Shown here: positions 1,981 through 53,109 of the stretch, piece by piece | How the letters are laid out: every line of letters starts with the position of its first letter | How positions within the stretch are numbered: the first letter of the stretch is position 1 | Source: a virus | Reading direction: 5' to 3' (one strand) | Virus record (IMG/VR): IMGVR_UViG_3300046169_000069 | DNA: 64,000 bases | The notes under the pieces: model-generated | Told to the model about the DNA's origin: nothing | Seen by the model: the letters and a program-made list of their open reading frames with translations, nothing else | Database searches by the model: none | Program-made: the position numbers and the translations under genes

Positions 1981-3129
1981 TTATGATGGGTCTACCGCAA
2001 CTGTCCAACCGAACTCAGTCTGCGCATTGTCGTTGGTAATTTTAATAGGATCAGCCAACAAATCAGTTGCATCATAAACATATACTGCGCCTAAGTCGGG
2101 TCCAGCATCATCATCTCTTCTCGCTCCGACTACGATCACATCATTATTGATAGCGACCGATTCACCAAACCGATCATGATCGTCTAAATCAGAAGGCATT
2201 AATTGAACCGGAGATAGTGAAAGGTTGTTTTTATCATAAACCCACACAGCGCCCTTAGAACTATTTTTGCCTGGAGACCCTACAACAAGATGGTTATCTG
2301 AGAAATCAAGAGAATATCCAAAATTAGAGTTATCGGTTGTATACCATCCAGGCCCAGTTAATTTATATTGATAATTATTATAGTCACCGACACCATAAAT
2401 ATAAACTGAACCACTTTCATTATCCCTGAAAGCACTAACTGCAATTATATTACCGTCAGTGGCCACGTCCGTTCCGAAGAAATCAAAAGTGCTGCCGTCA
2501 CTTGGACTGATAGATTCATACGGCGTGCCCGTACCACCGTTTGTCATAATATTTTTGTTGAATACATAAGCCCTTCCGCTGTAATTGCCACGAGGACTTT
2601 CTGCGTTCGATCCTATAACAATTATATCGCCCGATGAAGAAATTGGGCCTGAAGAACCAGAAGTCGAACCTTGATACGGTTCTGCTAAAAGATTGTTTCT
2701 ATCATAAACAAAAAACTTGTTGGTATATTGCTCAGATACCACTAGATGATTTTGATCAAGAGACATGTCCTTTCCGAAATCAGTATTTTCGTTGGATGGT
2801 GTAGTTAGTGTAGTGGGCCCACTAGACAGGTCATCTATATCATAAACATGAATATTCGATGGATTGTTGTAGTGGTCGGCTGCGTATATCATGTTACCAT
2901 ACACCGCAACCTTGTGGGCAAACATACCTGAATTATTTGAAGGGGCCTCAACTTCAATAGGTGGGCTTGTTAAATCGTTTGCGTCATAAAGAAAAGCTTT
3001 ACTGCCAGCAAAACCACCAACAAACATATTCATTCTTGGTTTCGGTGGTGCAACATAGTTCTCGTTAGTGCCTGGAGTAAACGTAACGTTTCCAAATACT
3101 GAAGTGCCTGGTCTTAATTTGAATCCCAT
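1981..3129 (-). CDS. FG-GAP repeat beta-propeller protein, paralog of the neighbouring gene
   Basis: Repeats FGTDVA/FGYSL/FGESVA...VVGA...GAVYVYD. Confidence 0.75.
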   Translation of the reverse strand: MGFKLRPGTSVFGNVTFTPGTNENYVAPPKPRMNMFVGGFAGSKAFLYDANDLTSPPIEVEAPSNNSGMFAHKVAVYGNMIYAADHYNNPSNIHVYDIDDLSSGPTTLTTPSNENTDFGKDMSLDQNHLVVSEQYTNKFFVYDRNNLLAEPYQGSTSGSSGPISSSGDIIVIGSNAESPRGNYSGRAYVFNKNIMTNGGTGTPYESISPSDGSTFDFFGTDVATDGNIIAVSAFRDNESGSVYIYGVGDYNNYQYKLTGPGWYTTDNSNFGYSLDFSDNHLVVGSPGKNSSKGAVWVYDKNNLSLSPVQLMPSDLDDHDRFGESVAINNDVIVVGARRDDDAGPDLGAVYVYDATDLLADPIKITNDNAQTEFGWTVAVDPS

Positions 3130-3155
3130 TTTAGTTTCCGTTATCTTTAATTAGA

Positions 3156-3428
3156 TTACGCCAAATCCTTATCGTGATTTAGGCCGCCTTTTTTCTTTTT
3201 AACAATGAACGCGTTGACTCGCGCCATTCCCCATTGTTGCGGTGTGGTGCCAGGCCGATGACCTGTCTTCCACGCAGCAACTCCACGATTATAAACTTTT
3301 CTCAAGGTATCTGGTGAGATACCCGACTTCTTCGCCTTCGCAGCGATACCATCCGGACCTTCGTCCAGATCAATACTATCATATACTGAATATCGTTTTT
3401 CGTCAAGATAGTTTTTAAAAGATATCAT
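3156..3428 (-). CDS. Small basic conserved phage protein with capsid-targeting-like N-terminus
   Basis: Starts MISFKNYLDE; motif VYNRGVAAWKTGHRPGTTPQQWGMARVN recalled from T4-like phage hypotheticals. Confidence 0.7.
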   Translation of the reverse strand: MISFKNYLDEKRYSVYDSIDLDEGPDGIAAKAKKSGISPDTLRKVYNRGVAAWKTGHRPGTTPQQWGMARVNAFIVKKKKGGLNHDKDLA

Positions 3429-4762
3429 GCCAATTTCCTTATCATTCCCGCAAGTACTTTTGCGTCAATATCTAGACTGAACTTGCGAATGGTATCTGCG
3501 GCTGCAAACTCCGGAGATGTGTACTTACCCTTTTGCATCTCACGTTTAATGTGTTGCGCCACTTTACGATATTTGTCTTTATTTATAGTTTTTGAACCGA
3601 CACGATTCATTAAATCGGTCACCCAGTTCTCAATTAAATCAGTGCTTTCTGGGACGCAGTCCGGTACCATCTTCTTACCTTTCTTCTTCATACCGACCTG
3701 CTTGTAACCGTCCCAACAATCTTCGTCGTACATATCTTTGAATGACTTGGTATACTTGGATGGTTTGGTCTTGGCGGTCTTATCTCCAGGCGCAGGTTTA
3801 TAGGCAGATGAATCGTCATCCGCTTTCTTACCGTGCTTCTTGAAGTGTGCATCGCGCTTTGCTTTGGTGGACTTCTTCAGTCCGGAGTGATATCGTGCAG
3901 GCTGAGTACCCTCACGATCTTTGATGTCTGGATCTTGTTTCTCAACAAGCTCAACAGAATCTAACCACTTGCGTAGTTTCTTACCGTCAGATGTTTCTAC
4001 GATAACGTAGTTCGCACCTAGAACGGATACGGTAGCGATCTCTTCAGATTCTTTAATAACTACCGTATCACCAACTCCAAACAGTTCACCCGAAACATAT
4101 TGTTCACGGGTTTCTGATACTGTTTCTAGTTCTAAGTGATTACGGAATTCGCTGGCTTCCTTGAGTCCCATACCTGTACGCACGTCGTTGAATAACTTAC
4201 GTGTGTCTGGGTTTGACATAGACTTAGGAACACCCTGAGAGAATGCAACAAAGTCATTCTTCTGTGCGTTCTCTCTTTGTTTAGAGGCAGACATACCCTC
4301 TACGCCGCTAGCGTCCGGATCTCTCTTACCTGCAGATACTATCTTAATGCTTTTAAAATTGTAAAAACCATGTCTTGCTTTCTGTCCGTTGTATTTGTTC
4401 AACAGGACTTCGAATTCTGTAATACGATCTGCACCGACAACCATAGTGACTGACTTATAGCCTTGATTGTACAGTGTGACCATTGCGTTGATAGCGGTCT
4501 TGACAGACTTATCAACCATGACGTTCCGTGCATGTTTTGGAAACATCTTACGAGTGTGTTTGATTTTGTCGGTATACGACAGAGGATTCTTTTTCGCGTC
4601 TTGGGATTGTGACACGAAGACTTTATAGTCAGCTTTGCCTGACTTCTGCGCTAACGCATCCATCACCTTACCGTGTCCTACGGTAGGTGGGTTCATACGT
4701 CCGAATGTAAAGTAGACCTCGCGTTCTTCTTCAACGAGGTACTGACTGAAATTCTTAATCAC
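3425..4762 (-). CDS. Cytidylyltransferase-like (HIGH superfamily) nucleotidyltransferase with basic C-terminal extension
   Basis: FGRMNPPTVGH (HxGH-type), VVGADR and MSASKQR (KMSKS-like) motifs. Confidence 0.8.
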   Translation of the reverse strand: MIKNFSQYLVEEEREVYFTFGRMNPPTVGHGKVMDALAQKSGKADYKVFVSQSQDAKKNPLSYTDKIKHTRKMFPKHARNVMVDKSVKTAINAMVTLYNQGYKSVTMVVGADRITEFEVLLNKYNGQKARHGFYNFKSIKIVSAGKRDPDASGVEGMSASKQRENAQKNDFVAFSQGVPKSMSNPDTRKLFNDVRTGMGLKEASEFRNHLELETVSETREQYVSGELFGVGDTVVIKESEEIATVSVLGANYVIVETSDGKKLRKWLDSVELVEKQDPDIKDREGTQPARYHSGLKKSTKAKRDAHFKKHGKKADDDSSAYKPAPGDKTAKTKPSKYTKSFKDMYDEDCWDGYKQVGMKKKGKKMVPDCVPESTDLIENWVTDLMNRVGSKTINKDKYRKVAQHIKREMQKGKYTSPEFAAADTIRKFSLDIDAKVLAGMIRKLA

Positions 4763-5130
4763 TTTTCTGCGCCGCCCTGTCTCTTAGCTCTCTTTCTATC
4801 TATCTCTTGGCGACGAACCGTTTTCATCAACTTACGTGACTGACGGTCTATTCGTGATTGTACAGCAGGTCTCGCTAAACGCTTCTCGATTTCTTTCTTA
4901 CGAGCAATAGACATATCACCTTTGTCTTGACCTTTGGTGATTTTCGATACCATCGCCTTTCTTGCTTGACGACGTGCACGTTTCTGAAGAACCTCTTTCG
5001 AAGCCATCTTACGTTCTGCGCGTTTGCGACCTAGTGCAATACGAGTTTTATTCTTTTTCATTTTCATAGCGAGTTTGCGACGTTGGGTCGCATCAAGCAC
5101 TTCGCTTACGAACTGTTTAAACGATAGCAT
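4759..5130 (-). CDS. Very basic small protein, probable internal head protein
   Basis: Starts MLSFKQFVSE; strongly K/R-rich. Confidence 0.65.
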   Translation of the reverse strand: MLSFKQFVSEVLDATQRRKLAMKMKKNKTRIALGRKRAERKMASKEVLQKRARRQARKAMVSKITKGQDKGDMSIARKKEIEKRLARPAVQSRIDRQSRKLMKTVRRQEIDRKRAKRQGGAEK

Positions 5131-5162
5131 AACTATCTTATCCCCTATTGGTTTATTCCATG

Positions 5163-6383
5163 TTATCTACGGGCTGAATCCCAACCCTTTAATATATCGG
5201 ATGAAAAGTTGTTGTATGAAAATTCCATACGGTCAACCAATTTCACCGCGTCACCACCAAGTGTATCAATTGCAACGTATCCTTCTTCGCCAGTCACTTT
5301 GTAACCATTAGAAGTTTTCACGAAAGTATCAATCGATTTAAGTTTGTCCAAACTATTTATAAGTTTTAATTTCACTAATACGATCAATTTTTGCAACTCA
5401 AACATTTTTACTAGGTTTGCCTTGTTTGTGACAGAGAAAAACTCCATCTCATCCTTCATCTTAGCAATCCAAGTGTCCTTACCACGTTGAGATTTCTTAC
5501 TTGCAATCTCTTTTGTGTAGTAGGCTTGTCTGTTACTTATCAGTCCGTTAACGTGCTTTCTTGAGTCCGGAAGTACGGTACCAGCACGAACGAATGAGTT
5601 GTTGTATGTCTCGATTGCCTGTGCGAACTTAGGGTTGTCCGCGACAGTTTTCAAGGTAGTTGCAGATGTCTGTTTGAATAGACGGCCTATCTGCGTTAGT
5701 AGATCATTGACCGATTTGGTTTCGCGTTCAGTCATTGTAGCGTTAGTCGCATCTTTTAACATCGCATCTTGTGACCATACGTTGCGTGACTTTCGCAACT
5801 TACTGACATCAACACCGTAGTCTGCTTTCATGTTCTCAAAAGATGTACCCGTGTATGTTGTATGCCATACAATACCGATCTTAGCGGCGCGTACTTCTTT
5901 CGCTTGATCATAGGGGACTGCGTATGCGATTGTGTTTGGGTGAAATACGCTGTACTTCTGACCATCAATGGTCTTAGTAGTGACATCTCCGTCACCGAAT
6001 AAGAAGTCGCCTTGAATGACACCTTTGATGCCTAGAGCTGGTAAATATTTGAGCGCGTCTTTCAGCTTAGAGTTTAGATCACCCGACGTATCAGCATCAA
6101 TGTCTGCGTCGGTCTTATAGACCTTTGGGTTCTTGTTGAAGATACCTTTCTTAGCAACGAAGAACTCGCCATCTGAAGGGTCAGTACCACAGAAGATCGC
6201 AGGCGAACCGTCCCACTTTACAGAGATGCGTCCCTTTGATGTGCCAGATAACATGTCGCGCAGTCCACGCAAGGCATTGATCGCCTGACGTGTACCGTCA
6301 ACTCCACCGTACAGGACCTTGTCCTCGATGTGAGTCATATGCGTATTCTTCTGTTCTGTGATAAAGTTACTGAAGTTTTCCAT
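5163..6383 (-). CDS. Conserved T4-like phage protein (DUF6267-like) with ATP-dependent ligase-like motifs
   Basis: Likely start MENFSNFITE at 6383; motifs SVKWDGSP, IQGDFLF, EEGYVA, AVKLVDR in ligase motif I/III/IV/V order. Confidence 0.65.
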   Translation of the reverse strand: MENFSNFITEQKNTHMTHIEDKVLYGGVDGTRQAINALRGLRDMLSGTSKGRISVKWDGSPAIFCGTDPSDGEFFVAKKGIFNKNPKVYKTDADIDADTSGDLNSKLKDALKYLPALGIKGVIQGDFLFGDGDVTTKTIDGQKYSVFHPNTIAYAVPYDQAKEVRAAKIGIVWHTTYTGTSFENMKADYGVDVSKLRKSRNVWSQDAMLKDATNATMTERETKSVNDLLTQIGRLFKQTSATTLKTVADNPKFAQAIETYNNSFVRAGTVLPDSRKHVNGLISNRQAYYTKEIASKKSQRGKDTWIAKMKDEMEFFSVTNKANLVKMFELQKLIVLVKLKLINSLDKLKSIDTFVKTSNGYKVTGEEGYVAIDTLGGDAVKLVDRMEFSYNNFSSDILKGWDSARR

Positions 6384-6384
6384 A

Positions 6385-7788
6385 TTAGTATAGTTTCGCA
6401 AATGGTCCAAATAGATCGCCCTTTTTCTGACCAAGATATGAGATATCAGATAAAAGGTCGCTTACTTTATTAATGTCACGTATTGTAAATATCTCATTAA
6501 GCAAATCCAACTGCATCAACTTACTATTCGCAACAGCTCTTTCATTGTCGTTCTTCGAACTGTCAAACACTGTTCGCATGTTATCAATAAATTCTTTTTC
6601 TGACTTGATATTCATTTCAACACGACCTGTACGATTAAGTGATTTAAATCGCCCGACGTGAACGTCCTGTTCTTTCAAAAAATCTTCTAGACTTTGGGGA
6701 TATTTTCTCCAAGATCTCCACCGATCATAATTTTTGACACCATAAGATCTAAGTGCCGCAGAGACCATGTCTAGTGGCGCTTTACCTAGTCTCGCGGCCC
6801 GCGCACTAACATCGGTACCTTCAATCTTTAAGTTGTTGAATCCACGCGAGTTCTGTCTTATCTGAAAGTTGATGGTTACCTTGCTCGACGCAATCTGAAA
6901 AGACGATTCTGTGTTAACAAAAGAAGTGCCTGACAGAGACAGATTTAATTTTGATTCTTGAAAATCAAACCGATATTCATCGCCGTCAAATAGGTCTTCT
7001 CCATCAAAGTTTACCAGTTCCCATCTTGCAGTTTTACCGGACATCTTCTTCAAAGAAATGCCTACGACTTGACGACTGTTGAACATATCTTGAAGAATTG
7101 CATTAAACTCTGGAAGCGATGTTGAGTTATCCCTAATTTTTGAGTCTAGGTCTCGTTTCGCCTTTGATAAATCTGCGACCAACCAAATGTCAGCCGGGTT
7201 CCACGTATCTTTTTGTGTTATGCCATACAACTCTTTACAAGTGTCTGTGATGTAATCCATGAACCCGCCATCACGACTGTAGTGACCATACTGTGTATTG
7301 CCAACTTTCTGTTGTGTCAACTTCTGTTGTTCAAAGAAAACATTCTCCCAGTATTCGTCCATGGCAGGATATTCTTTCAAGAGATCTTCACGATATAGTT
7401 TTAAAAACGTTTCTTTATTAGTATATCCATTTTTCTCAATACCTTTCTGAATCGCTAACAAACTGGCTCGTTCTTGCATCGCAGTGGTCTTACCGTCTGG
7501 TTTACCACTTTTTCCGCCCATTCCACTAAACGGCGACTTGTCTATTTCGGTCCATTTATATCCATTGAATATAGGCGCATAGTTATTTCCAGACTTTGCC
7601 GAAACATTGACCTGAGTTATGTTTTGTTTCTCTACAGCAGACACAAACTTTTTGACTAAGTCTGTCTGATTGATTACTTGAGAAACATTGCCCTTAAACT
7701 TAACAGGTTCACCATTAGTGATTTTGTCAGCAAGCATGTTTAAGTATGGCTTAGAAAACTTGAAGTCCCCGCCAGCAAGCATTGCCAT
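6385..7788 (-). CDS. Hypothetical protein, possible PD-(D/E)XK nuclease fold
   Basis: 467-aa ORF with DTWNPADIW...GISLKK; first gene after late promoter 7832-7839. Confidence 0.5.
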   Translation of the reverse strand: MAMLAGGDFKFSKPYLNMLADKITNGEPVKFKGNVSQVINQTDLVKKFVSAVEKQNITQVNVSAKSGNNYAPIFNGYKWTEIDKSPFSGMGGKSGKPDGKTTAMQERASLLAIQKGIEKNGYTNKETFLKLYREDLLKEYPAMDEYWENVFFEQQKLTQQKVGNTQYGHYSRDGGFMDYITDTCKELYGITQKDTWNPADIWLVADLSKAKRDLDSKIRDNSTSLPEFNAILQDMFNSRQVVGISLKKMSGKTARWELVNFDGEDLFDGDEYRFDFQESKLNLSLSGTSFVNTESSFQIASSKVTINFQIRQNSRGFNNLKIEGTDVSARAARLGKAPLDMVSAALRSYGVKNYDRWRSWRKYPQSLEDFLKEQDVHVGRFKSLNRTGRVEMNIKSEKEFIDNMRTVFDSSKNDNERAVANSKLMQLDLLNEIFTIRDINKVSDLLSDISYLGQKKGDLFGPFAKLY

Positions 7789-7831
7789 GTAATAGTCTCC
7801 GTAATTACTTTATCGTAAGTATAACAGACAC

Positions 7832-7839
7832 TATTTATA
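7832..7839 (-). promoter_or_regulatory. T4-type late promoter TATAAATA
   Basis: Exact match upstream of the 7788->19 gene run. Confidence 0.75.
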
Positions 7840-8512
7840 TGTCAAGGGCATTTCCAGAATTTTCTGCATTATATTGCGCAATTGTGTCGCGGAGAGGACG
7901 AACCCAATTGTCTCTATGTTCAATAAAGACTTGTGGTTCGTGGTTGTCTACAGAAATGATGGTGACTAGTTGGGTGATGGGCCTTCCCGTCCGTTCTTCC
8001 CACATAATAGCGTAGGCGGACTCTTGCATGAAATAGTTTTTGACCCATTCAAGTCGTTTTGGTTTAAGTGAGGTTTTAAAGTCGATGATAGACAACTTAC
8101 CATCAAACTCAGCAACACAGTCCACACGACCAGCCACACCCAGATGATTGGAGTAGAGAGGCGCTTCCTGTGCAAATACTCTGCCAATGCGGCTATCGAG
8201 AATGGGCTGAAGATCAAGGAAACTACTAATAATATCTGGAGTATATCCATTTTTGAAACTCTCTTCATTGTTGATGTATTTCTCAACCACTTCATGGACT
8301 GCAGTACCGCGTGTAGATGCGCGATGAGAAATGCGGTTTGCTTCTTCGTTACCGACTTTTTTACGCCACTTTGCGATAGACTCGCGTGAAAGTATAGAGA
8401 GTACGGTGGTTATAGAGGGAAGGTTGATACCTTCGGGCGTTTTATACTCACGGCGACCATTGCGGTTCTCCGTTTTCATTTCAGTCAATTCAATAGGTAC
8501 ATGTTCAAACAT
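7835..8512 (-). CDS. PD-(D/E)XK exonuclease (phage Cas4-like/exonuclease family)
   Basis: LPSITTVL, RGTAVH, AGRVDC, IIDFKTS, QESAYA motifs. Confidence 0.85.
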   Translation of the reverse strand: MFEHVPIELTEMKTENRNGRREYKTPEGINLPSITTVLSILSRESIAKWRKKVGNEEANRISHRASTRGTAVHEVVEKYINNEESFKNGYTPDIISSFLDLQPILDSRIGRVFAQEAPLYSNHLGVAGRVDCVAEFDGKLSIIDFKTSLKPKRLEWVKNYFMQESAYAIMWEERTGRPITQLVTIISVDNHEPQVFIEHRDNWVRPLRDTIAQYNAENSGNALDI

Positions 8513-8643
8513 TATCTATAATTATCCAAGTCATTTTCATCTATGGATCTTCGCTCTCTTCTCACGAGGTATGATAAAAAGATTACACTGGAGACTAATA
8601 TAACTCCAATGGTAGCAAAGAAATATAATAAGAATTCTAACAT
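8512..8643 (-). CDS. Possible 43-aa single-pass membrane protein
   Basis: Hand translation MLEFLLYFFATIGVILVSSVIFLSYLVRRERRS...; start overlaps a promoter-like sequence at 8634-8662. Confidence 0.35.
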   Translation of the reverse strand: MLEFLLYFFATIGVILVSSVIFLSYLVRRERRSIDENDLDNYR

Positions 8644-8671
8644 AAAAACTCTCACTTGTCAATAGCAAAAG

Positions 8672-8832
8672 ATCCCCACAAGTACGGCGCCTTTTAGACA
8701 TTTTGTTTGGTGAAACTTGATATAACTCTGCTGGCATTTTTACATGCACGATTTGAGAGATCTGCAGATCTTATCAGTGCGCCCGTGCGCAAAATTCACT
8801 CTATGTCAGACTAACCGTACTCTGTGGGGGAA
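8672..8832 (-). ncRNA. Putative ~160-nt structured non-coding RNA immediately 3' of tRNA-Ala
   Basis: Terminal stem CCCCACA(G)AGUACGG/CCGUACUUGUGGGG with nested GACAU/AUGUC and GUGAA/UUCAC stems and internal hairpins. Confidence 0.6.
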
Positions 8833-8833
8833 C

Positions 8834-8909
8834 TGGTGGAGCTAGAGGGAGTCGAACCCACGACCTCTTGAATGCAAATCAAGCGCTCTCCCAACTGAGC
8901 TATAGCCCC
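8834..8909 (-). tRNA. tRNA-Ala(UGC)
   Basis: Canonical cloverleaf GGGGCTA...anticodon loop TTTGCAT...GTTCGA...CCA. Confidence 0.95.
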
Positions 8910-8918
8910 TTATTTGTC

Positions 8919-8926
8919 TATTTATA
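8919..8926 (-). promoter_or_regulatory. Late promoter TATAAATA for tRNA-Ala/ncRNA
   Basis: Exact match ~10 nt upstream of the tRNA 5' end. Confidence 0.65.
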
Positions 8927-8938
8927 CCACATTAATAT

Positions 8939-9006
8939 TGGAGCGGAGCGTAGGAACTTCCCCTACCTCAGCGAGGGGTACTCGCCGACTCAATACTGAA
9001 CTCCGC
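8939..9006 (-). ncRNA. Non-canonical tRNA-Gly(ACC)-like RNA, 68 nt
   Basis: GCGGAGU/GCUCCGC acceptor + UCCA; GGCGA/UCGCU stem with loop GUACCCC; GUAGG/CCUAC stem with loop GGAAGUU; reduced D arm. Confidence 0.65.
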
Positions 9007-9012
9007 AAAACT

Positions 9013-10431
9013 TTAGTCGCACCCAAGTTCTTGACGCGACACTTCATCGTTGTTGATAGGACAGTTGCCGCTTGGTAACGACTCTGGCACATATCGCATC
9101 AACTCTGGATCATGCAAACCGTTCTCAAGGAACGCAACAAGGTTTGCAATCTCATCTTCGGTCAAGTCTAACGGCGTGAACCGATAGTCAAGGTCATACG
9201 TCTCCACTTGTGGGTGTTGGGGAACCGCATCAACTTTATATCGCACGACATCCTCTACACTAGAGAACGACGCACCGTGACCGAATACAGTAGTATCTAT
9301 AAGGTTGTAAAGAGGCGGAACTTTGAACGCAAACTTCTCCATCTCATCACCAGTGAACCCACCACGACCTTCTCTAGTCGCATCGTTGACTTCACCTACT
9401 GTATCTTCCCAGATGTCCAGATCGTGGAAACCCACAGTCATAAACACTTCGTCAGCCATAGCACCGACAGGTGATGACAAGGCAGGACCGTTGTGACATG
9501 CATAACAGTTACCCTTACCAAAGAACACCTCTGCGCCTGCGACTTCAGATTCAGTCATCGCAGTTTCGTCACCTTTCAAGTATGCTTGGAAGGGCGCTTG
9601 GTTTGCAAGAATGGTTCGTTCGTATGCGGCGATCGCCAGTGCAGTCGCTTCTAACATATCGTCGGGTTCTGCGACACCGTACGCAGCTTCAAACATCTCA
9701 CGATAAGTTTCGTTAGTGCGCAGGATAGAATCATCTGTGTCACCCTGACGATGCACACCTAGACCCGCAACTGCTTGTGTCTCTAGACCAGCAAAGTTGC
9801 GTAGGTTTGCTTCTTTCGGAGTACCTTCTGTGAAGTGACGATCGGGATCAATACCAACATTGACATTACCCGCAATCACATTACCTAACTGACCATTCCA
9901 CAACATCACTTCTTGGAATGCCGTGTTGAGTACAGTGGGTGATGCAACAGGTTGCACATCGATGTCTTCGGGATTGATACCCTCCATCACCATGCGGTGA
10001 TCGAAACCGATACCGCCTTCACCGATACCCTGACGGATACCAGACTTGAATCCGTTCTGTGCATTGTGGCATGACGCACATGAGAACGTGCTCTCACTAG
10101 GTCCGATATCACCTTCAGTGATACCAGTTTCGTGATAAATCAACTTGCCTAGTGCGACTTTCTCTGCGGTGATCTCATTGCTGGGATCCTGCGGGATGTT
10201 GTCGAAGTCATCACTTGCGGGTAGGATGTATGCCTCGTAAGTACCTGTCGGTGACGTAGAGTCAAGTAACGTGAGTAGATTGTCACGTGCCTCGACTGCG
10301 GGGTCGACGGGTGTCGTTACGGGCGTGGATGTGACAGGATCTGCCACGACGGGCGGTGGGGTGTCAGAACCTCCACCAGAACACGCACTTAGAAGTGCAG
10401 TAGACACAGCTACAGTTAGTAGTTTCTTCAT
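9013..10431 (-). CDS. Di-haem cytochrome c peroxidase (CCP/MauG family) lipoprotein
   Basis: Lipobox LLSA-C, two CxxCH (CASCH, CYACH), LGKLIY, PTVLN, FKVPPLYN motifs. Confidence 0.88.
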   Translation of the reverse strand: MKKLLTVAVSTALLSACSGGGSDTPPPVVADPVTSTPVTTPVDPAVEARDNLLTLLDSTSPTGTYEAYILPASDDFDNIPQDPSNEITAEKVALGKLIYHETGITEGDIGPSESTFSCASCHNAQNGFKSGIRQGIGEGGIGFDHRMVMEGINPEDIDVQPVASPTVLNTAFQEVMLWNGQLGNVIAGNVNVGIDPDRHFTEGTPKEANLRNFAGLETQAVAGLGVHRQGDTDDSILRTNETYREMFEAAYGVAEPDDMLEATALAIAAYERTILANQAPFQAYLKGDETAMTESEVAGAEVFFGKGNCYACHNGPALSSPVGAMADEVFMTVGFHDLDIWEDTVGEVNDATREGRGGFTGDEMEKFAFKVPPLYNLIDTTVFGHGASFSSVEDVVRYKVDAVPQHPQVETYDLDYRFTPLDLTEDEIANLVAFLENGLHDPELMRYVPESLPSGNCPINNDEVSRQELGCD

Positions 10432-10475
10432 AATATAAGAGTCCTCTCAATACTCTATTTCAATTTACAAAAAGA

Positions 10476-10505
10476 ATTATACTACAAAATATGAGGACTT
10501 GTCAA
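10476..10505 (-). promoter_or_regulatory. Sigma70-type early promoter for the peroxidase
   Basis: TTGACA-18-TATAAT. Confidence 0.75.
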
Positions 10506-10515
10506 GTGTGAATAA

Positions 10516-11202
10516 TTATCTATTTTTAACTCGTTTAGTAGCCTGACGTTCTACGTCAATCCACCGTTGCGCTTTCTTACCAACGGGTTTGTCGGTGAAT
10601 TTCTTTGCATCACGAAATGCAGTCAAAGTTTCTTTCTCGTAGTCTTTACCTTCAGAGTTATCTACGACCAAGAAGTTTACCTTACCAAACATACGTTGGA
10701 ACTTACCAATATTTCGTTGTACTGCTTTCCAGTATTCGGTAACACCTTTCTTGCCTAGTGTACGTGCACGTTTCGCATCACGGTTGATAGCAGTATCAAG
10801 GTCTGTGTTTACGAAAATCATTGCGACATCGTAACCCAAGGCTTTTACTTTCTTTGCCTGTTCAGCAATTTTATCTGGGTCTTTACCAGTACCATCTACT
10901 ACGAGACCAAGACGACCTTTCAGATATCTCTCTTCTTTCTTTCCGGTAAGTTTTTTTGCCTTACCGCGAAGTTCTTGTCCTTTTGGAGAGAAGATATTGT
11001 CCGGAGTCATATCCATATCAACCTTCTTCATTGCGGCTTCAAATGCGTCATCTGAGTTGACAACCTTGTAGCCCATAGAAGTCAGACCCGTCTTACCGAC
11101 GATGAATGACTTACCAGAACCCGGCCCACCCGCAAGAAAGATTGCCTTGAAGATTGCTGGATCATTAACGCCTTCGTCTAGGAATGTTTTAAAAGTTTTC
11201 AT
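10516..11202 (-). CDS. Zeta-toxin/AAA_33-like P-loop kinase with capsid-targeting-like N-terminus
   Basis: Walker A GGPGSGKS, VNSDD, VVDGT, lid RxxxRxR; starts MKTFKTFLDE. Confidence 0.8.
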   Translation of the reverse strand: MKTFKTFLDEGVNDPAIFKAIFLAGGPGSGKSFIVGKTGLTSMGYKVVNSDDAFEAAMKKVDMDMTPDNIFSPKGQELRGKAKKLTGKKEERYLKGRLGLVVDGTGKDPDKIAEQAKKVKALGYDVAMIFVNTDLDTAINRDAKRARTLGKKGVTEYWKAVQRNIGKFQRMFGKVNFLVVDNSEGKDYEKETLTAFRDAKKFTDKPVGKKAQRWIDVERQATKRVKNR

Positions 11203-11233
11203 TGGATTACAGTCAGTTGGTTATAGATGTGTT

Positions 11234-11241
11234 TATTTATA
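11234..11241 (-). promoter_or_regulatory. Late promoter TATAAATA
   Basis: Exact match 32 nt upstream of the kinase ATG. Confidence 0.7.
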
Positions 11242-42887: not shown

Positions 42888-43487
42888 TTAATCTTCTATC
42901 CAATCTGATAAATCCGAATCGACATTTACTGCTCGTCGTTTGCGTTTCTTCTCTTCTTTTACATACTCTTTGAATTCATGATCAGAAGATTTGACAGCGT
43001 CAATTCTCATACGGAGAGAATCAATGAAGGGGGATGCTTGTTGAGATGTGTATCCATCTTCCTCAAGTGATTCTGCCAAGAAGTCCATAACGTCGGCTTC
43101 GGCAATAAACTTAAGTTTGATGTTCTGTTGTTTTTTCTCTTTCTCAATCCTGCGAAGAAAGGCAAACCAAGATATCTGAGTGAAGTATGCGAACGCATTT
43201 GGTTTGCCACTACGAGTTGCGGCTTCTATATTATAATTCTCAATCGCTTTGAGCATATTCTCAACAGCGTCCATAACCATCTCTTCACGGTAAGTGTACC
43301 GAACAAAATTTCCTTTGTGAGACAGACCCTCGGCGATCTTAAGAAAGCAAGATGCGATATAATCCGTAACAACCGGAACAGGTTGTTCATTTGATTTAGC
43401 TTCTCTCTAGCTTTCAGTGCAGTACTCCACCACAGCGTTTGAGAAGTCTCTATTACTTACGTAATGTGGTTTTTCTTTTGGTTTCAT
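42888..43487 (-). CDS. gp55: Late-transcription sigma factor gp55 (frameshift near 43410)
   Basis: HYVSN N-terminus, NFVRYTYREEM, NAFAYFTQI. Confidence 0.92.
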
Positions 43488-47225: not shown

Positions 47226-48590
47226 TTAAACACCTGCGCGATCAAGAATATTGTCGACGCGGAAGATGCGGTAGTATGTGTTCTGACCATTCGTTGCAGT
47301 GATGTCACGTGAAGATCCATCTAGTGCACCGATGAATGGGTTCGCAGCCATACCATAACGAGTCTTAAACCCGATACGTGGTTGGAAATCATCCTCGCCA
47401 ACTGCCTTGACCATCTGTAGTGGTACGTATGGGCAGTAGAACATACCTGCGTCATATGGGTTAGTACCCTTATAACCTACTGTACAGTAGTTGATTTCTG
47501 CGTATGGATCGATGAATACGCGCATACGACCATTTAGAGTACCAGCGAATGTGTTACCAGTATCATCTACTGATAGACCAGCGCCTGGAGTGTAATCTAG
47601 TTGACCAGATGCTGCAAGTGCAGTCGCAACGTCAGATGAACATACGATGATGTTACCCTTACCGCGACGTGTAGCCTTCGCGATCTGGTTCGCTTCGCGT
47701 TCAATCTGCATTGCTAGACCCTTGAACTTCTCCGCAGACCAACGACCATCAGCGTCTGTCGATAGATCGAAGATGCCTGGGTTAGTAACATTTGAAGACT
47801 CGCCTAGACCTAGTTTAGCCTGAGAGTTGATTGTACGAACGATTTCGCGGTTGATTTCAGCAAGAATCTCTGTAGACAGAATGTTTGCTAGTTCTGTCTC
47901 TGCGTCTAGACCGTGGATTGCCTTTAGGTCTTGCGCTAGTTCTAGTGAGTACTCAGCCTTTAGTGCACGTGACTTTGCAGTGACGGCTGTCTTCTCGATT
48001 GAGAAGCCCATCTCTTGGAAAGCGCCTGTATCGCGACCTAGACCTTCTGCCGCAGCAGTTGACATTGGACGACCTACTGCATCAACAACAGTGAAAGTAT
48101 CTGAGTCTCCACCGAAACCAGAACCTTGTGTAGTTGGTGCAGTGTTAGGGGGAGTAAATCCGCTTGAGTATGCTGGGTCAGCGGCTGGATCACCACCAGA
48201 GAATCCAGTACTTGGCTCGTTTAGACCCAATGCTTCTGGTCCGCCCATATTGTTGTAACGTGACTTCATCGCGAAGATTAGACCAGTTGGGCCAGACATT
48301 GGCTGGACACCACATAGGTCATATGCCATTAGGTTTGGCATTGCGCGACGTACTAGTGAGATTAGGATTGGATCCCAGTTAGCAACGCCTGCATTACCGA
48401 CGCTGTTAGTTGGACCAGTTTCTGTTAGAAAACCACCCATTGCAGCACGCTCTTCTGAAAGTGCCTTCTCTTGGTTTTCTAGGATAGCAGCTGTAACTGC
48501 CTTACGGTGATGATCGGTGATTTGACCAGCAGACTCTTCATTAAGTACTGGCGCCCACTTCTCAATCAATTGATCGAATGAATTGTTCAT
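47226..48590 (-). CDS. gp23: Major capsid protein gp23
   Basis: KWAPVL, LVRRAMP, VQPMSGPTGLIFA, KSRALKAEY, YCPYVPL, GFKTRYG. Confidence 0.98.
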   Translation of the reverse strand: MNNSFDQLIEKWAPVLNEESAGQITDHHRKAVTAAILENQEKALSEERAAMGGFLTETGPTNSVGNAGVANWDPILISLVRRAMPNLMAYDLCGVQPMSGPTGLIFAMKSRYNNMGGPEALGLNEPSTGFSGGDPAADPAYSSGFTPPNTAPTTQGSGFGGDSDTFTVVDAVGRPMSTAAAEGLGRDTGAFQEMGFSIEKTAVTAKSRALKAEYSLELAQDLKAIHGLDAETELANILSTEILAEINREIVRTINSQAKLGLGESSNVTNPGIFDLSTDADGRWSAEKFKGLAMQIEREANQIAKATRRGKGNIIVCSSDVATALAASGQLDYTPGAGLSVDDTGNTFAGTLNGRMRVFIDPYAEINYCTVGYKGTNPYDAGMFYCPYVPLQMVKAVGEDDFQPRIGFKTRYGMAANPFIGALDGSSRDITATNGQNTYYRIFRVDNILDRAGV

Positions 48591-48601
48591 TGTTAGATTC
48601 C

Positions 48602-49639
48602 TTATTTCTTAGAGGTTTTACGTAGAGCGCTCAAGTATCCTTCCATAGATTGTGATACTTCTACTTCTTCTTCAGCTTCTTCTGAAACTGACTCTTCAAG
48701 TTGCTCTGGAATTTCTTTTGAGAAGTATGATTCTTTAACTGTATTCACTTTAGTAACGAATGTTTCTTCGTTCTCAAAATCAACACTGTTTAGAAGATCT
48801 GCTAACTTCTCCGCTTGTGTGTCTGCCAAATCACGAGATGCTTCAGCGATAATCGCTTCACGCTTATAATTTTCTAGTTCTTCAGCAAGTGAAATTGCAT
48901 CACCAGTAGTTGAGTTTAGACGTTCTTCTAAATCTTCTACTTGTCCTGCAAGTTCATCAACTAGGTCTACCTTAGACTCTGGAACTTCAACGTAAGACTC
49001 TACGAATAGATCACGCATTCCGTTCATGAACCCTTCAGCGATTTCAGTACGTAGACCGCTCTGAATTGCCAACTTGTTCTCTTCCATCCAAGATTCAACC
49101 ACGTAGTTTAGGTATGAATCAACTTTACCGACTAGGTCGGTTTTGATTGTTTCGACTTCTTCAGCAAGCTCTTCAGCATACTGCTCTTCTAGTCGAGTTA
49201 CTTCTTCAGAAAGCTTAGACTTAACTGCAGACTCAAAGATGATTGCGGTCTTTTCCTTGAACTCTTCTGATAGAGTTGCTTCACCATCAACAATTGCAGA
49301 TAGTTCTGCAGATGTGTCAGCGTCTTCAACGTCATCCAGTAGTTCAACAGACTCTGCAAACAACTTGTTGTATGCATTTGTTAGGTCTTCTTTTTTCATT
49401 TTAGAAGTAGCCTTATACATGGCGTTAACCATGCCTGCCTTTGTTTTAGGCGGAGCAGTCTTTGAAGTTGCCTTTTTAGCTTTATCTACAGAGGCGATTG
49501 ACTCAGGTTCATCAATAGGTTGATCTTCCTTTGCCTTGCCTTTAGTTGTAGGAGCTTTTGCTTCTTCGAGAGTTTCCTCCACGATTTCGTTTGTTTCAAC
49601 ATCTAGATCGCGGATTTCACCTTGATTTAAATCAGTCAT
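48602..49639 (-). CDS. gp22: Prohead core scaffold gp22
   Basis: LSEEFK...IFE, VDSYLNYVVESW, KESYF; acidic coiled coil. Confidence 0.92.
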   Translation of the reverse strand: MTDLNQGEIRDLDVETNEIVEETLEEAKAPTTKGKAKEDQPIDEPESIASVDKAKKATSKTAPPKTKAGMVNAMYKATSKMKKEDLTNAYNKLFAESVELLDDVEDADTSAELSAIVDGEATLSEEFKEKTAIIFESAVKSKLSEEVTRLEEQYAEELAEEVETIKTDLVGKVDSYLNYVVESWMEENKLAIQSGLRTEIAEGFMNGMRDLFVESYVEVPESKVDLVDELAGQVEDLEERLNSTTGDAISLAEELENYKREAIIAEASRDLADTQAEKLADLLNSVDFENEETFVTKVNTVKESYFSKEIPEQLEESVSEEAEEEVEVSQSMEGYLSALRKTSKK

Positions 49640-49648
49640 AGTGACTCC

Positions 49649-50308
49649 TTATAGTTTAGATTTGATTAACGAGAGGAAATTCTTGAACTCACGCATTTGC
49701 ACTTCAGGTTGATGTGCAATTGGTGCTTGCTTAATTTCAGTCTCTATATCTTCAATGACTTGAGGTTGAAGTACTCCATTATTCCAGACCCAGTCTACAC
49801 CTTCCATAATCCCATTAACAAATGCTTCTGGTGCGCTTGGATCTTGTACGATATCTACCGTATTAAGAATAAAGTCTTCTTTGACGTACATTGCGCCATT
49901 TTTTCTCTCAAGACTTCCCATTCCACGAGTTGACACGCCTAGTTGTACACCACCTTCTAAGAGACCTTTCACAATCTTGCCCATTGGGGTGTCCAATATT
50001 TGTGCCTTTCCAACCACATCATTACCTTCCAATTTTAGGTCTGTGATGAGGTGAGAAACTTTATCAAGGTTAACGGTTGGGCCCTCTGGATGATTCAGTT
50101 CACCCACGGCGCGTTTTTTGTTAACCTGTTCTTCAACGTACTTGTTTACAGCAGATTCCATAATCTGTTTTGGGTAAACACGTCCGTTACGATTCTTTTG
50201 TTCTGCCTGTGCAAATACACCTTCAATAACAAAATTCTTGCCGCCATCTTCTTTGGCTTCAACGATGCATTGTATATCGTTTTCTACGTATTCGCTAATC
50301 AGTTTCAT
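49649..50308 (-). CDS. gp21: Prohead protease gp21
   Basis: NRNGRVYP, GELNHP, GVSTRGMGS, DIVQDPSAP. Confidence 0.96.
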   Translation of the reverse strand: MKLISEYVENDIQCIVEAKEDGGKNFVIEGVFAQAEQKNRNGRVYPKQIMESAVNKYVEEQVNKKRAVGELNHPEGPTVNLDKVSHLITDLKLEGNDVVGKAQILDTPMGKIVKGLLEGGVQLGVSTRGMGSLERKNGAMYVKEDFILNTVDIVQDPSAPEAFVNGIMEGVDWVWNNGVLQPQVIEDIETEIKQAPIAHQPEVQMREFKNFLSLIKSKL

Positions 50309-50309
50309 T

Positions 50310-50507
50310 TTATTTTCCTAAGTCTTTAAGGACTTGTTTCGCGGTTGACTCCGCTTCTTTTTGTGACTTAAATGTGTCAACAGAATCTCCATCGATTGAT
50401 AGATGAAAACCCTTTGCAGTTTTAGTGATGACTACCGGATAACCAGACATCTTTTTCTTCAAGACGACCTTATCTTTCGCCTCACGTAATTCTTGAAAAG
50501 TTTTCAC
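50310..50507 (-). CDS. Small prohead/internal protein (gp68 position)
   Basis: Starts MKTFQELRE; late promoter at 50528-50535. Confidence 0.65.
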   Translation of the reverse strand: MKTFQELREAKDKVVLKKKMSGYPVVITKTAKGFHLSIDGDSVDTFKSQKEAESTAKQVLKDLGK

Positions 50508-50564
50508 ATTAAGTCTCCTTTAGAATGTATTTATACAAAAAAGTTTTTTAAATGTAACTTTTTG

Positions 50565-51200
50565 TTATTTACGATAAAGATGCTTCGTACTACCGAACAT
50601 TTGATCAGCATAAACTGGATCTGGGCCATCATAATAGACATGTTTCTTTTTAAAATGTCTCGGTATCAAATAGTGTGACGGCCATATTACCAGTTTGTGT
50701 TTCTCTTTATCTGGTACAAATTGTGACAACCATTCATTACCCGTAGACTTATACGGTTTAGGGTCCAAGTCTTCCGGTCTTAATTTGTGCAGTTCGTCAA
50801 TCAACATTCGCACAAATGTGTTCTCTGGGTTACACGCCTGTATCGGTGAGATAAAGTTAGGCACAATAGTCTCACTCTCAAATACAGTGTATGCATGATC
50901 CGCAGGCGCAGTGAATAGTTCATCCGTATTACGTAAACAAACTGCATCAGCTGGCGGTAAAAACCCACCTTGTTCATACAGTAGTTCATATCGGATTAAA
51001 TCCGCAACACCTGCGTACGCCCCCTGATTATAATACTTTGCGATTAGATGTTGATTGTGCCATTGTCTGGCTCGTAACATCTCATCTGTAAAAATATAAT
51101 AGTCCCAGTCGGGGTGTTTTTCTTTCCATGTATCCATCCACTGCAATGGTGGACTTAAATGCCCTATCCATATGTGACACATGTTTTTAACTATATTCAC
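50565..51200 (-). CDS. GT32-like (Och1/capsular polysaccharide) glycosyltransferase
   Basis: HIWIG, TWKEKHPDW, ADLIRYELLYEQGG, TG motif. Confidence 0.75.
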   Translation of the reverse strand: MNIVKNMCHIWIGHLSPPLQWMDTWKEKHPDWDYYIFTDEMLRARQWHNQHLIAKYYNQGAYAGVADLIRYELLYEQGGFLPPADAVCLRNTDELFTAPADHAYTVFESETIVPNFISPIQACNPENTFVRMLIDELHKLRPEDLDPKPYKSTGNEWLSQFVPDKEKHKLVIWPSHYLIPRHFKKKHVYYDGPDPVYADQMFGSTKHLYRK

Positions 51201-51532
51201 GACTCTTCGGTTTCTTCCAATTCAGAATCTGTAGAACCAAAGTCTTCAGCTTCTTCGCCGTATTCGACTTCCGAAGTATCGTCGACCTCAACTTCGTCGT
51301 CTAGATCCATCTCTTCCGGTTCAACGCCATTAAAGATCTGATCAGCGACCGCAACTTTCTCAGCGTCTAAAGCATCTTGGACTTTATTGCCCAAAATGTC
51401 ATTAAATAGAGTTTCAGCTCCATTGAAGTTGCCGTTCTGAAGTGCATCAACAAAACTTAGAGTAGGATCAACTTCTACCTCAGTCTCTGCCACTTCTAGT
51501 TCTAAATCTAATTCTGTATCTAATTCATTCAT
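51197..51532 (-). CDS. Acidic prohead core protein (gp67-like)
   Basis: Position after portal; very acidic. Confidence 0.6.
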   Translation of the reverse strand: MNELDTELDLELEVAETEVEVDPTLSFVDALQNGNFNGAETLFNDILGNKVQDALDAEKVAVADQIFNGVEPEEMDLDDEVEVDDTSEVEYGEEAEDFGSTDSELEETEES

Positions 51533-51534
51533 GG

Positions 51535-53044
51535 TTATACCTCCATATCATCCACGTCTCCGCTTTTTTTCGTTTTCAGCTTCGACTTGTTTTGACATCT
51601 CTTCGATGTCTTCATCATTAAACATCATTACGTTTTTCATTACCCACTCACGTGAGAAGTACTCTCCCACATAACTGGCGATTTGATCCATAGTGGCTAG
51701 TCGTTCTCGCAACAACTCAGAATCTTTTAGTTCTGCGAAGTGGTTGTCTCTAGTGTAGTCAACCTGAATTTGAGTTTTCCACTCTTCCCAGTCTTGTTCT
51801 GTACATACGCCCTTAAGAATAAGTTGTTTCTTAAGAACACCAAGGAACAGGTGCGCAAACTTTTTGCGCAGTCGGTCAATAAACTTTTGGAACTTTACTT
51901 CGTCACGGCCAATTTCTGTTGTACGACCCAAAGAAAACTGTGATTCTTGTTCCAATCGGTTCAAAGGCACGTTTAACGAACGATACAACTTCTTTTGGAA
52001 ATAAATGATATCGTCAATCTGTCCTAGGTTTTCGCCGCCTGGTAGAGTACTTATCTCTGTTCCACGACCACCTTCGCGACGTGGCAACCAAAAGTCCTCT
52101 AACATTGACATATGTTTACGATCGTCTTTGATCTCACCAGAGTTCGCATCATACACAATCTTGTTACGGTATCGCGCCATAATATCTTTGATGTGTTGTT
52201 CGGCCTTACCCTTCGGCAGGTTACCAACATCAATATAGAAGATGCGTCGTTCAGGCGCACGTGCGAGACGATAGATGACCAATGAGTCTTCCATCATGCG
52301 CAATTGGTTTACAGGTTTGATTGCTTTCTGTAGGTAGGATAGGACGCGTTTTTTTGACGCATCCAAAAGACCTGAAGTGACATAAGACACAGAATCTGGT
52401 GTTAACTTAATGCCAGTAGATGCACCACCCTTATCTTGGTAGATGTAAAACTCATTAACTTTATCTACTAACTTTGCCCCAGTTTTCGGATCTTTCTTAT
52501 GTTTTATCTCTTTGACTTTACGAATCTTAGTTGCGTCAATAGGGCGAATCTCTTGGATTCCAGCCTTTAGGTTAGACTCATTAACAACTAAGTGGTGATA
52601 TATGCGACCATCTACATACCAAGAACGGAACATATCGTGTCCATATTCTTCAAAGTTTAACATACCGACGATGTTGTCAAACTCTTCTGTAATAGTCTTT
52701 TTGATTTTATCTCCGGCCTCAACCTTATCTAAATTAAGAGTGACCGAAGATTCTAATTCGGATGAAACGATTGTTTCATTGATAATATCTTCTATCGCAG
52801 CATCACACTCTGGGTGTTCAGCGACCGAACGATATTTTTTGATGAGTTCTGCGTTGTCTTTGGCTGCGCCACCGTCCATGTCGATGTACTGACCAAAATA
52901 AGAACCAGAAGCAGTAACATATCCAGCGCCATCTTCATCGACCTTCGGTACGATAGAGGGCGTCTTGTCATTTTCGTCTTTCATTTTTTGAACGCGTTTT
53001 AGTTCAAATCCGAATGCTTGGAAAATATTTCTTTCGTCTGCCAT
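51535..53044 (-). CDS. gp20: Portal protein gp20 (C-terminal frameshift in an A8 run)
   Basis: WYVDGR, RAPERRIFYIDVGNLP, EDFWLPRREGGRGTEISTLPGG. Confidence 0.97.
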
Positions 53045-53109
53045 AAAATCCTCGTAATAATAAATGAGGGGGTGGATTAACACCCCCTGTCAACTTACTT
53101 ATAATACCT

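Follow-up and report, generated by a model that had tools for sequence, protein, structure and literature searches.

Five genes in a 64,000-nucleotide stretch of viral DNA (IMG/VR record IMGVR_UViG_3300046169_000069, here called the window) start with a shared N-terminal leader, M-x(2-3)-F-x-x-[FY]-[LIV]-x-E. The leader is probably a capsid-targeting propeptide of the T4 type, such that the five proteins would be loaded into the phage head, trimmed of the tag and ejected together with the DNA. The tagged region spans positions 3156-11241, and the five genes, like all genes of the window, are encoded on the minus strand. The system is best read as a variant of T4 internal-protein loading that carries enzymes, including an uncharacterised family with a predicted ligase fold.

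The leaders are MISFKNYLDE at 3428, on a 90-amino-acid fragment of DUF5824; MIKNFSQYLVE at 4762, on a nucleotidyltransferase whose GTG start overlaps with the stop codon of the gene before it; MLSFKQFVSE at 5130, on a basic protein of 123 amino acids; MENFSNFITE at 6383, on a DUF6267 protein (leader codons 6354-6383); and MKTFKTFLDE at 11202, on a kinase (leader codons 11173-11202). An initial annotation of the window had pointed to this common N-terminal pattern and to a close variant, MKTFQELRE, at 50507; all five starts and the variant were confirmed. The motif was found at no further true gene start within the 64-kb window. Inside proteins the core motif occurs at a rate of 2.2e-4 per position, which gives 0.07 N-terminal matches expected in 83 genes, and the probability of finding five or more tagged starts among the 83 genes is about 1.5e-8. 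The closest isolate is Phage C48C1, a member of the Kyanoviridae with 82% nucleotide identity across the region, and the nearest record is G001, whose DUF6267 protein is 98% identical to that of the window. Both were used as whole-genome comparisons for the window phage. Conservation of these starts extends to C48C1, G001 and 80 metagenomic contigs. Since the codons of the leaders differ, it is the peptide that is conserved and under selection. The shared leader is a real feature that goes beyond chance.

In the reference sequences, both IPII and IPIII of T4 begin with MKTYQEFIAE. Ten residues of the T4 tag suffice for loading into the head, mutagenesis has assigned targeting mainly to residues 4 and 7 and processing to residues 8 and 10, and the cut by gp21 follows L/I-x-E (reviewed in PMC9026906). 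Internal proteins loaded by the tag, and also foreign fusion proteins, are delivered into the infected cell (PMC9026906). The positions conserved in the window leaders are 4, 7, 8 and 10, i.e. the residues mapped in T4. In four of the leaders, position 4 is F and position 7 is F or Y, and the leader of the nucleotidyltransferase has the same spacing, shifted by one residue. The predicted gp21 sites are LDE, LVE, ITE and LDE; in the basic protein the site reads VSE, with V replacing L or I. The window set is like the T4 internal proteins in its ten-residue tag, where positions 4 and 7 are aromatic, position 8 is aliphatic and position 10 is Glu, in its predicted late expression, in having homologues of gp21, gp22 and gp23 in the window, and in its variable, clustered cargo of small basic proteins plus enzymes (in T4, Alt). 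Unlike T-even T4, the window phage is marine and belongs to the Kyanoviridae, and its cargo is unrelated to IPI-III and Alt and consists mostly of enzymes of nucleic-acid and nucleotide chemistry. Packaging, cleavage and ejection of its proteins are predicted.

The head module was analysed for the components that such a loading system would use. A gp21-type prohead protease is encoded at 49649-50308 (minus strand; phrog_207, E 1.1e-78) and is presumed to be the processing enzyme for the leaders. A gp22-type scaffolding protein of the prohead core is encoded at 48602-49639 (minus strand; phrog_237, E 4e-80) and the gp23 major capsid protein at 47226-48590 (minus strand). The scaffold has 14 [LI]xE sites, where 7.9 are expected, and gp23 has five within its first 57 residues; judged from their sequences, these head proteins would fit the specificity expected of the gp21-type protease. 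Directly upstream of the protease gene, a basic protein of 65 amino acids (50310-50507, minus strand) carries the short leader variant MKTFQELRE, the start of which matches T4 in five of six residues (MKTFQE for MKTYQE, with F for Y). A gp55-type late sigma factor is found at 42891-43487 (minus strand), with 90% identity by tblastn to the late sigma transcription factor of C48C1. With the four mapped positions matching and homologues of gp21, gp22 and gp55 present, the likeness to the capsid-targeting leaders of T4 that the initial annotation had pointed to is supported. The ejection proteins of the phages phiKZ and SPN3US are processed by gp21-like proteases. As a separate observation, the N-terminus of gp23 itself, MNNSFDQLIE, is similar to the short leader variant.

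The late-promoter sequence TATAAATA occurs at 12 sites in the window, all on the coding strand, whereas 2.3 are expected on both strands together. One exact match, at 11234..11241, lies 32 nucleotides upstream of the kinase ATG at 11202. Another, at 7832..7839, lies 44 nucleotides upstream of the ATG at 7788, the first gene of an operon, and a third, at 50528-50535, lies 21 nucleotides upstream of the GTG at 50507 (all on the minus strand). The operon spans 7788 to 3156, with one adjacent stop/start, two overlapping stop-start pairs and one 32-nucleotide gap at its junctions, and its four tagged genes follow a leaderless first gene of 467 codons. Thus, of the earlier statement that the tagged genes lie downstream of exact late promoters, the sites themselves are present, but the one at 7832 directly precedes the leaderless gene. 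From the matches to the promoter consensus and the gp55 homologue, the tagged genes are predicted to be transcribed late.

A T4 head-loading tag on five late proteins suggests that they are probably carried in the virion and injected. In the proposed mechanism, the tagged genes would be transcribed late from the TATAAATA promoters and the tag would steer the DUF6267 enzyme, the nucleotidyltransferase, the DUF5824 fragment, the basic protein and the kinase into the scaffolding core of the prohead. The gp21-type protease would then remove the tag after the Glu, and the mature proteins would remain in the filled head and exit with the DNA at the next infection.

The tag is not confined to the families of the window. 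In the 80 related viral contigs it is present on 162 of 1,244 genes, all on the same strand as DUF6267, and these comprise the five window families, the family of the 467-amino-acid protein and at least 25 further protein clusters. The consensus of the 162 tags is M-[KIL]-[SN]-F-K-[QE]-[YF]-[LI]-x-E, with F at position 4 in 161 of 162, Y or F at position 7 and L or I at position 8 in 150 of 162. A gp21 homologue was found in all five of the long contigs with leader-tagged DUF6267 that were tested. In the C48C1 genome, the canonical tag is on six genes inside one 11-kb block, and a single match outside the block, on the UvsW helicase, is probably due to chance. In G001, the canonical tag is found only within 7.3-20.4 kb of the 160 kb, and the short variant is on a small gene beside gp21. 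Early genes thus do not carry the tag as a rule. A comparison of early and late genes had been suggested in the initial annotation, and its outcome in these two genomes, one block plus the gene beside gp21, agrees with the loading proposal. The cargo is exchangeable: at the position of the kinase, C48C1 has a different tagged protein of 205 amino acids. The tag is also kept at fusion junctions, as MGKTFTDFITE between kinase and DUF6267 in the fusion protein P0125 and as FKDFLTE in P0136. It is separable from the fold of its cargo, being disordered in the structural model described below, missing from some orthologues and present on at least 25 further clusters. Just past the position of the window's left edge, C48C1 (L001 4689-5006) and G001 (19607) also have a cysteine-rich protein of 105 amino acids with the canonical leader MKKFKQY[VI][ED]E and a CCEAC motif, for which no family match was found.

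Orthologues of the window nucleotidyltransferase have been found in virions of cyanophages. S-SZBM1 gene 140 (PMC9146016), S-CREM2 ORF154 (PMC10665884) and S-SCSM1 ORF91 (PMC9602691) were each detected by mass spectrometry in CsCl-purified virions, as a 'cytidylyltransferase' or 'NMNAT'. Virion-associated proteins with these names are described for S-SCSM1, S-SZBM1, S-CREM2 and S-CBWM1 (PMC9602691, PMC9146016, PMC10665884). According to the available text of the S-SCSM1 paper, such proteins are a frequent finding and are likely to be carried in the virion (PMC9602691); in the available text of the three papers, the choice between virion-carried proteins and carry-over is left undecided, and a loading signal or tag is not mentioned (PMC9146016, PMC10665884, PMC9602691). 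When the N-termini were taken from the genome records, the orthologues detected in virions were found to begin with MRFRQFIIE (S-SZBM1), MKNFSSFLTE (S-CREM2) and MKSFLQFLKE (S-SCSM1). The window protein is 41% identical to S-SCSM1 ORF91, 34% to S-SZBM1_140 and 35% to S-CREM2_154. In a full-text literature search, the capsid targeting sequence was found together with cyanophage only in the Black review. Unlike the 'NMNAT' loci of the cyanophages, the window has a split gene, accompanied by tagged genes for a ligase-like enzyme and a kinase.

In S-SCSM1, the whole block of ORFs 89-93 (L013 358-5836) is annotated as virion protein, with tags only on ORF91 (canonical) and ORF89 (short variant). 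Genome-wide, one of the two clear canonical tags is on a protein flagged as virion protein, two virion proteins have the short variant, and several loose matches to the tag are on proteins that are not virion proteins. The relation between tag and virion detection in S-SCSM1 is supportive, and not statistically decisive.

Several observations weigh against the proposed loading. The gp21 cleavage motif is just three residues long. The nucleotidyltransferase has six further [LI]xE sites, with 2.3 expected for the whole protein, so that it might be cut into pieces. The virion-detected neighbours S-SZBM1_139 and S-SCSM1 ORFs 90 and 92 are without a canonical tag, and S-SCSM1 ORF30, a protein of 106 amino acids, has a canonical tag and no virion flag. 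Tag and virion detection thus do not always go together. There are also cyanophage DUF6267 proteins without a leader. In S-SZBM1, the DUF6267 protein beside the nucleotidyltransferase begins directly at the domain (MAKNTHLEHLED), and it was not seen among the virion proteins quoted from PMC9146016. Since these proteins and the 467-amino-acid first gene of the window operon are leaderless, the set need not be packaged together. We also considered a general depletion of [LI]xE in the cargo and rejected it, for DUF6267 has such a site only in its tag, but the nucleotidyltransferase is enriched in them. Taken together, the packaging of the tagged proteins is well supported in silico and by the proteomics of orthologues, and we infer that packaging and cleavage probably take place in the window phage and that the proteins would be ejected into the host.

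The tag might load the prohead and the proteins act there or in the producing cell, as core or DNA-condensing proteins or as enzymes acting on the packaged DNA, with neither ejection nor early action. The basic proteins of 123 and 65 amino acids do resemble structural internal proteins, the nucleotidyltransferase with its many internal [LI]xE sites is like proteins that are degraded in the head, and virion proteomics proves presence, not ejection. Nevertheless, we regard this as rather unlikely, because tag-loaded internal proteins and foreign fusions of T4 reach the infected cell (PMC9026906), and enzymes that depend on ATP and soluble substrates would find little to act on in a filled head. 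It is likewise improbable that the shared N-terminus of late enzymes that stay in the cytoplasm serves translation initiation or regulation, or acts as a linker for recombination, and is not a targeting signal. The tagged genes all lie in one plastic block, and cargo is swapped at one position between close relatives, as expected if the 5' ends mediate cassette exchange; such exchange is compatible with targeting and no substitute for it. Moreover, the residues are kept despite differing codons, the conserved positions are those mapped for targeting and processing in T4, the motif is missing from other late structural genes, and tagged orthologues are found in purified virions. That the five matches are a product of chance or of open reading frame (ORF) calling can be dismissed, even though the motif is short, one gene starts with GTG and one at the second candidate start of its ORF, given the probability of about 1.5e-8, the same starts in C48C1, G001 and the 80 contigs, and a DUF6267 domain that starts at residue 13, directly behind the tag.

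The nature of the cargo was also analysed. The DUF6267 protein has 406 amino acids (5163..6383, minus strand; Pfam DUF6267, E 1.5e-105). In its AlphaFold2 (AF2) model, with a predicted local distance difference test (pLDDT) score of 93.8, residues 1-9 are below 50 and form the sole disordered stretch of three or more residues. In 82 diverse sequences, K56, D58 and G59 of the KWDG motif (KxDG), D126, E367, G368 and K381 are invariant. From the sequence, QGD (D126), EGYV (E367, G368) and VKLVDR (K381) would follow the order of the ligase motifs III, IV and V. When the model was compared with known structures by VIA-align, the Naegleria RNA ligase 5cot was matched with Z 8.1 and a root-mean-square deviation (rmsd) of 4.0 over 187 amino acids, and the fungal Trl1 ligase domain with Z 8.1 over 205 (9r3w) and Z 7.6 over 201 amino acids. 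T4 Rnl2 (1s68) gave Z 7.7 over 179 amino acids, T4 Rnl1 (9do4) Z 7.1, the trypanosome REL1 (1xdn) Z 6.6 and an archaeal DNA ligase (2hiv) Z 6.5. Among the matches listed, every long alignment (164-205 residues) is to a ligase, with moderate Z; short helical bundles and one match of 108 residues at rmsd 7.1 were set aside. In the model, residues 219-346 form a helical domain of about 130 residues, an insertion ahead of motifs IV and V, and there is neither an OB domain nor an Rnl-type C-terminal domain.

Other searches gave no such result. Foldseek against the PDB found nothing significant, with ligases at a probability of 0.3-0.5, and sequence and profile searches against solved structures gave spurious matches only. 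The hhalign comparison with T4 Rnl2 had a probability of 0.15% and paired EGYV with motif IV alone, which is not significant. We conclude from the model that the DUF6267 protein has an RNA-ligase-like nucleotidyltransferase fold. The initial annotation had called it ligase-like from its KWDG, QGD, EGYV and VK motifs; these motifs are present and the long VIA-align matches are ligases. In a structural check of the kind that it had suggested, VIA-align points to the ligase fold, but Foldseek and hhalign remained without significance. Like the RNA repair enzymes T4 Rnl1 and Rnl2, Trl1 and Naegleria RNA ligase, DUF6267 would combine the nucleotidyltransferase fold of ligases with a KxDG lysine motif; unlike them, it has a helical insert between motifs III and IV and is without significant sequence similarity to these ligases.

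Of the 150 representatives listed, 133 have a recognisable conserved start of the DUF6267 domain, KNxH(L/M)xHxED. In 92 of the 133, an extension of 9-30 residues stands N-terminal to it, and most of these extensions read as a tag; in 24, fewer than nine residues stand before the domain, which leaves no room for a tag. The family comprises about 2,500 representative clusters and is present in more than 450 sequenced cyanophages, and no open paper that mentions it was found.

The second enzyme is a protein of 445 amino acids (3425..4762, minus strand) that the initial annotation had described as a HIGH-type nucleotidyltransferase. The Pfam profile CTP_transf_like (PF01467) matches it with 24.9 bits at a cut-off of 21, and phrog_3041 and phrog_395 (cytidyltransferase) match at about 1e-70. 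It carries the HIGH-type motif TFGRMNPPTVGH and SASKQR, and TFGRxNPPTxGH and SASKxR are kept in nine homologues. On these profiles and motifs the assignment is upheld as a predicted HIGH-type nucleotidyltransferase. After the nucleotidyltransferase domain come a small beta domain, then the N-terminal half of DUF5824 and finally a C-terminal region. A single-sequence search of the PDB gave no match, and a profile search gave weak matches to MJ0951 (E 0.036), the NMNAT MJ0541 (E 0.66) and FAD synthetase (E 0.88). NCBIfam had no match for any of the six proteins searched, and PADLOC reported nothing meaningful. In the alignment of the homologues, the tag is at the extreme N-terminus, followed by a spacer of 0 to about 100 residues and then by the catalytic domain; three homologues have no tag. 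In the public annotation of C48C1 (L001 9583-9649), the cytidyltransferase starts at MNPPTIGH, inside the HIGH motif. A GTG located 66 nucleotides upstream of that start would give MIKNFSQYLLE and restore the first strand of the fold.

The gene is split in the window (3156-4762), and corresponds to a single gene of 596 codons in the pelagiphage HTVC008M (L011 11401-13191). The protein of 90 amino acids at 3156..3428 (minus strand) is the C-terminal half of DUF5824 (Pfam profile positions 63-125) and is 55% identical to residues 507-590 of the 596-amino-acid HTVC008M gp130. The detached fragment has a tag of its own.

The 11202 protein, a single domain of 228 amino acids (10516..11202, minus strand), has the Walker A motif GGPGSGKS and matches AAA_33 with 42.3 bits (cut-off 27) and Zeta_toxin with 41.7 bits (cut-off 22.3). 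The earlier assignment as P-loop kinase is thus supported, and by its profiles the protein is predicted to be of the AAA_33/zeta type. It has a weaker match to the polynucleotide kinase phrog_505 (5e-7), and no useful match came from a PDB sequence search (adenylate kinase, E 0.005). It is 44% identical to HTVC008M gp129, the gene of which adjoins the DUF6267 and nucleotidyltransferase genes of that phage, so that the three genes are contiguous there. Natural fusions were also found, of kinase and DUF6267 (P0125), of nucleotidyltransferase and DUF6267, and of DUF6267, nucleotidyltransferase and whole DUF5824 (P0127).

The tagged protein of 123 amino acids (4759..5130, minus strand) is strongly basic and is likened to the T4 internal proteins. 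Homologues with a leader are present in six related contigs. A similarity to the basic C-terminus of T4 gp68 was considered and is not significant (E 0.05). The leaderless first gene of the operon (6385-7788, minus strand; phrog_1462) encodes a protein of 467 amino acids that is 34% identical to PHM2_161 of P-HM2 and belongs to a virus-only family with the invariant motifs NWNPADIW, GISLKK and FQIK. Homologues in contigs L039, L061, L077 and L088 carry the leader. A structural model (pLDDT 79) gave no named fold by Foldseek, a wide VIA-align or an atlas search. A match to HpaII/HaeIII restriction enzymes in a protein atlas, with a score of 0.84, is a lead only. From the sequence, the invariant motifs may possibly form a PD-(D/E)xK-like site.

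A kinase together with a ligase-fold enzyme suggests the processing of nucleic-acid ends. It is tentatively proposed, as a possibility that we hold to be well short of probable, that the two would act in such processing, on RNA likelier than on DNA, and that the nucleotidyltransferase would make a nucleotide or cofactor. Trl1 joins ligase and kinase domains (plus a 2',3'-cyclic phosphodiesterase, CPDase), and likewise the P-loop kinase and DUF6267 are neighbours in HTVC008M and parts of one fusion in P0125. Against this function, no end-healing 3'-phosphatase or CPDase was found by Pfam, PHROG and NCBIfam in the nine ORFs at 1981-11202; the rest of the genome was not searched. The T4 Pnkp/Rnl and Trl1 pathways have an end-healing phosphatase or CPDase, whereas no such partner is found in the window block. 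The single kit for end healing and sealing, or for NAD rescue, that the initial annotation had envisaged is not supported: no phosphoesterase is among the family matches of the block.

It is doubtful that a kinase, a ligase-fold enzyme and a cofactor-supplying nucleotidyltransferase are delivered by the virion to act together before phage gene expression. If true, the kit would, in the first minutes, seal the breaks that host defence nucleases make in RNA or DNA, or would sustain ligation where NAD or ATP is being depleted, and the fusions of nucleotidyltransferase and DUF6267 would be self-contained modules for cofactor-regenerating ligation. Repair or cofactor rescue as the purpose of the set is, on the whole, an unlikely to tentative proposal.

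As proposed here for the window, the polyvalent proteins and MuF-linked cargo (Iyer et al. 2017, PMC5512222) bring several enzymatic effector domains into the capsid for delivery with the DNA. The multi-domain fusions in the relatives (P0125, P0127, P0182), with tag-like motifs at the two junctions examined (P0125, P0136), add to this likeness. Unlike that cargo, the window effectors are mostly separate genes, each with a short tag of its own, and there is no MuF or portal fusion. Cytidylyltransferase, HIGH nucleotidyltransferase and Zeta toxin are not mentioned in the available text of PMC5512222.

The tag offers a mechanism for the recurrent and unexplained 'NMNAT' or 'cytidylyltransferase' in purified virions of marine T4-like phages. 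In T-even phages the loading tag is on a few small proteins; here its range is extended to enzymes, of which a large and exchangeable repertoire is seen in T4-like phages of cyanobacteria and of SAR11 (HTVC008M) and in many related metagenomic contigs. DUF6267 is singled out as an uncharacterised ligase-fold enzyme. As a simple sequence rule, the tag may serve to predict phage proteins that enter the host with the DNA, and these would be candidates for counter-defence or takeover functions in the first minutes.

The operon is separated from the kinase gene by unrelated genes, which encode a Cas4-like exonuclease, tRNA-Ala and a di-haem peroxidase lipoprotein. The Cas4-like PD-(D/E)XK exonuclease (phrog_298; 7835-8512, minus strand) lies directly upstream of the 7832 promoter, which its 3' end overlaps. 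A match to TATAAATA at 8919-8926 (minus strand) lies 10 nucleotides upstream of the tRNA-Ala gene (8834-8909). The di-haem cytochrome c peroxidase lipoprotein (9013-10505, minus strand) has a perfect sigma-70-type promoter, TTGACA-18-TATAAT, and its gene is an insertion between the kinase gene and the tagged operon. The head module further comprises the portal (51548-53083, minus strand) and a gp67-like acidic protein (51197-51532, minus strand). A gene for a protein of 211 amino acids with no clear family (50565-51200, minus strand) is located between the genes for the gp67-like and the 65-amino-acid proteins.

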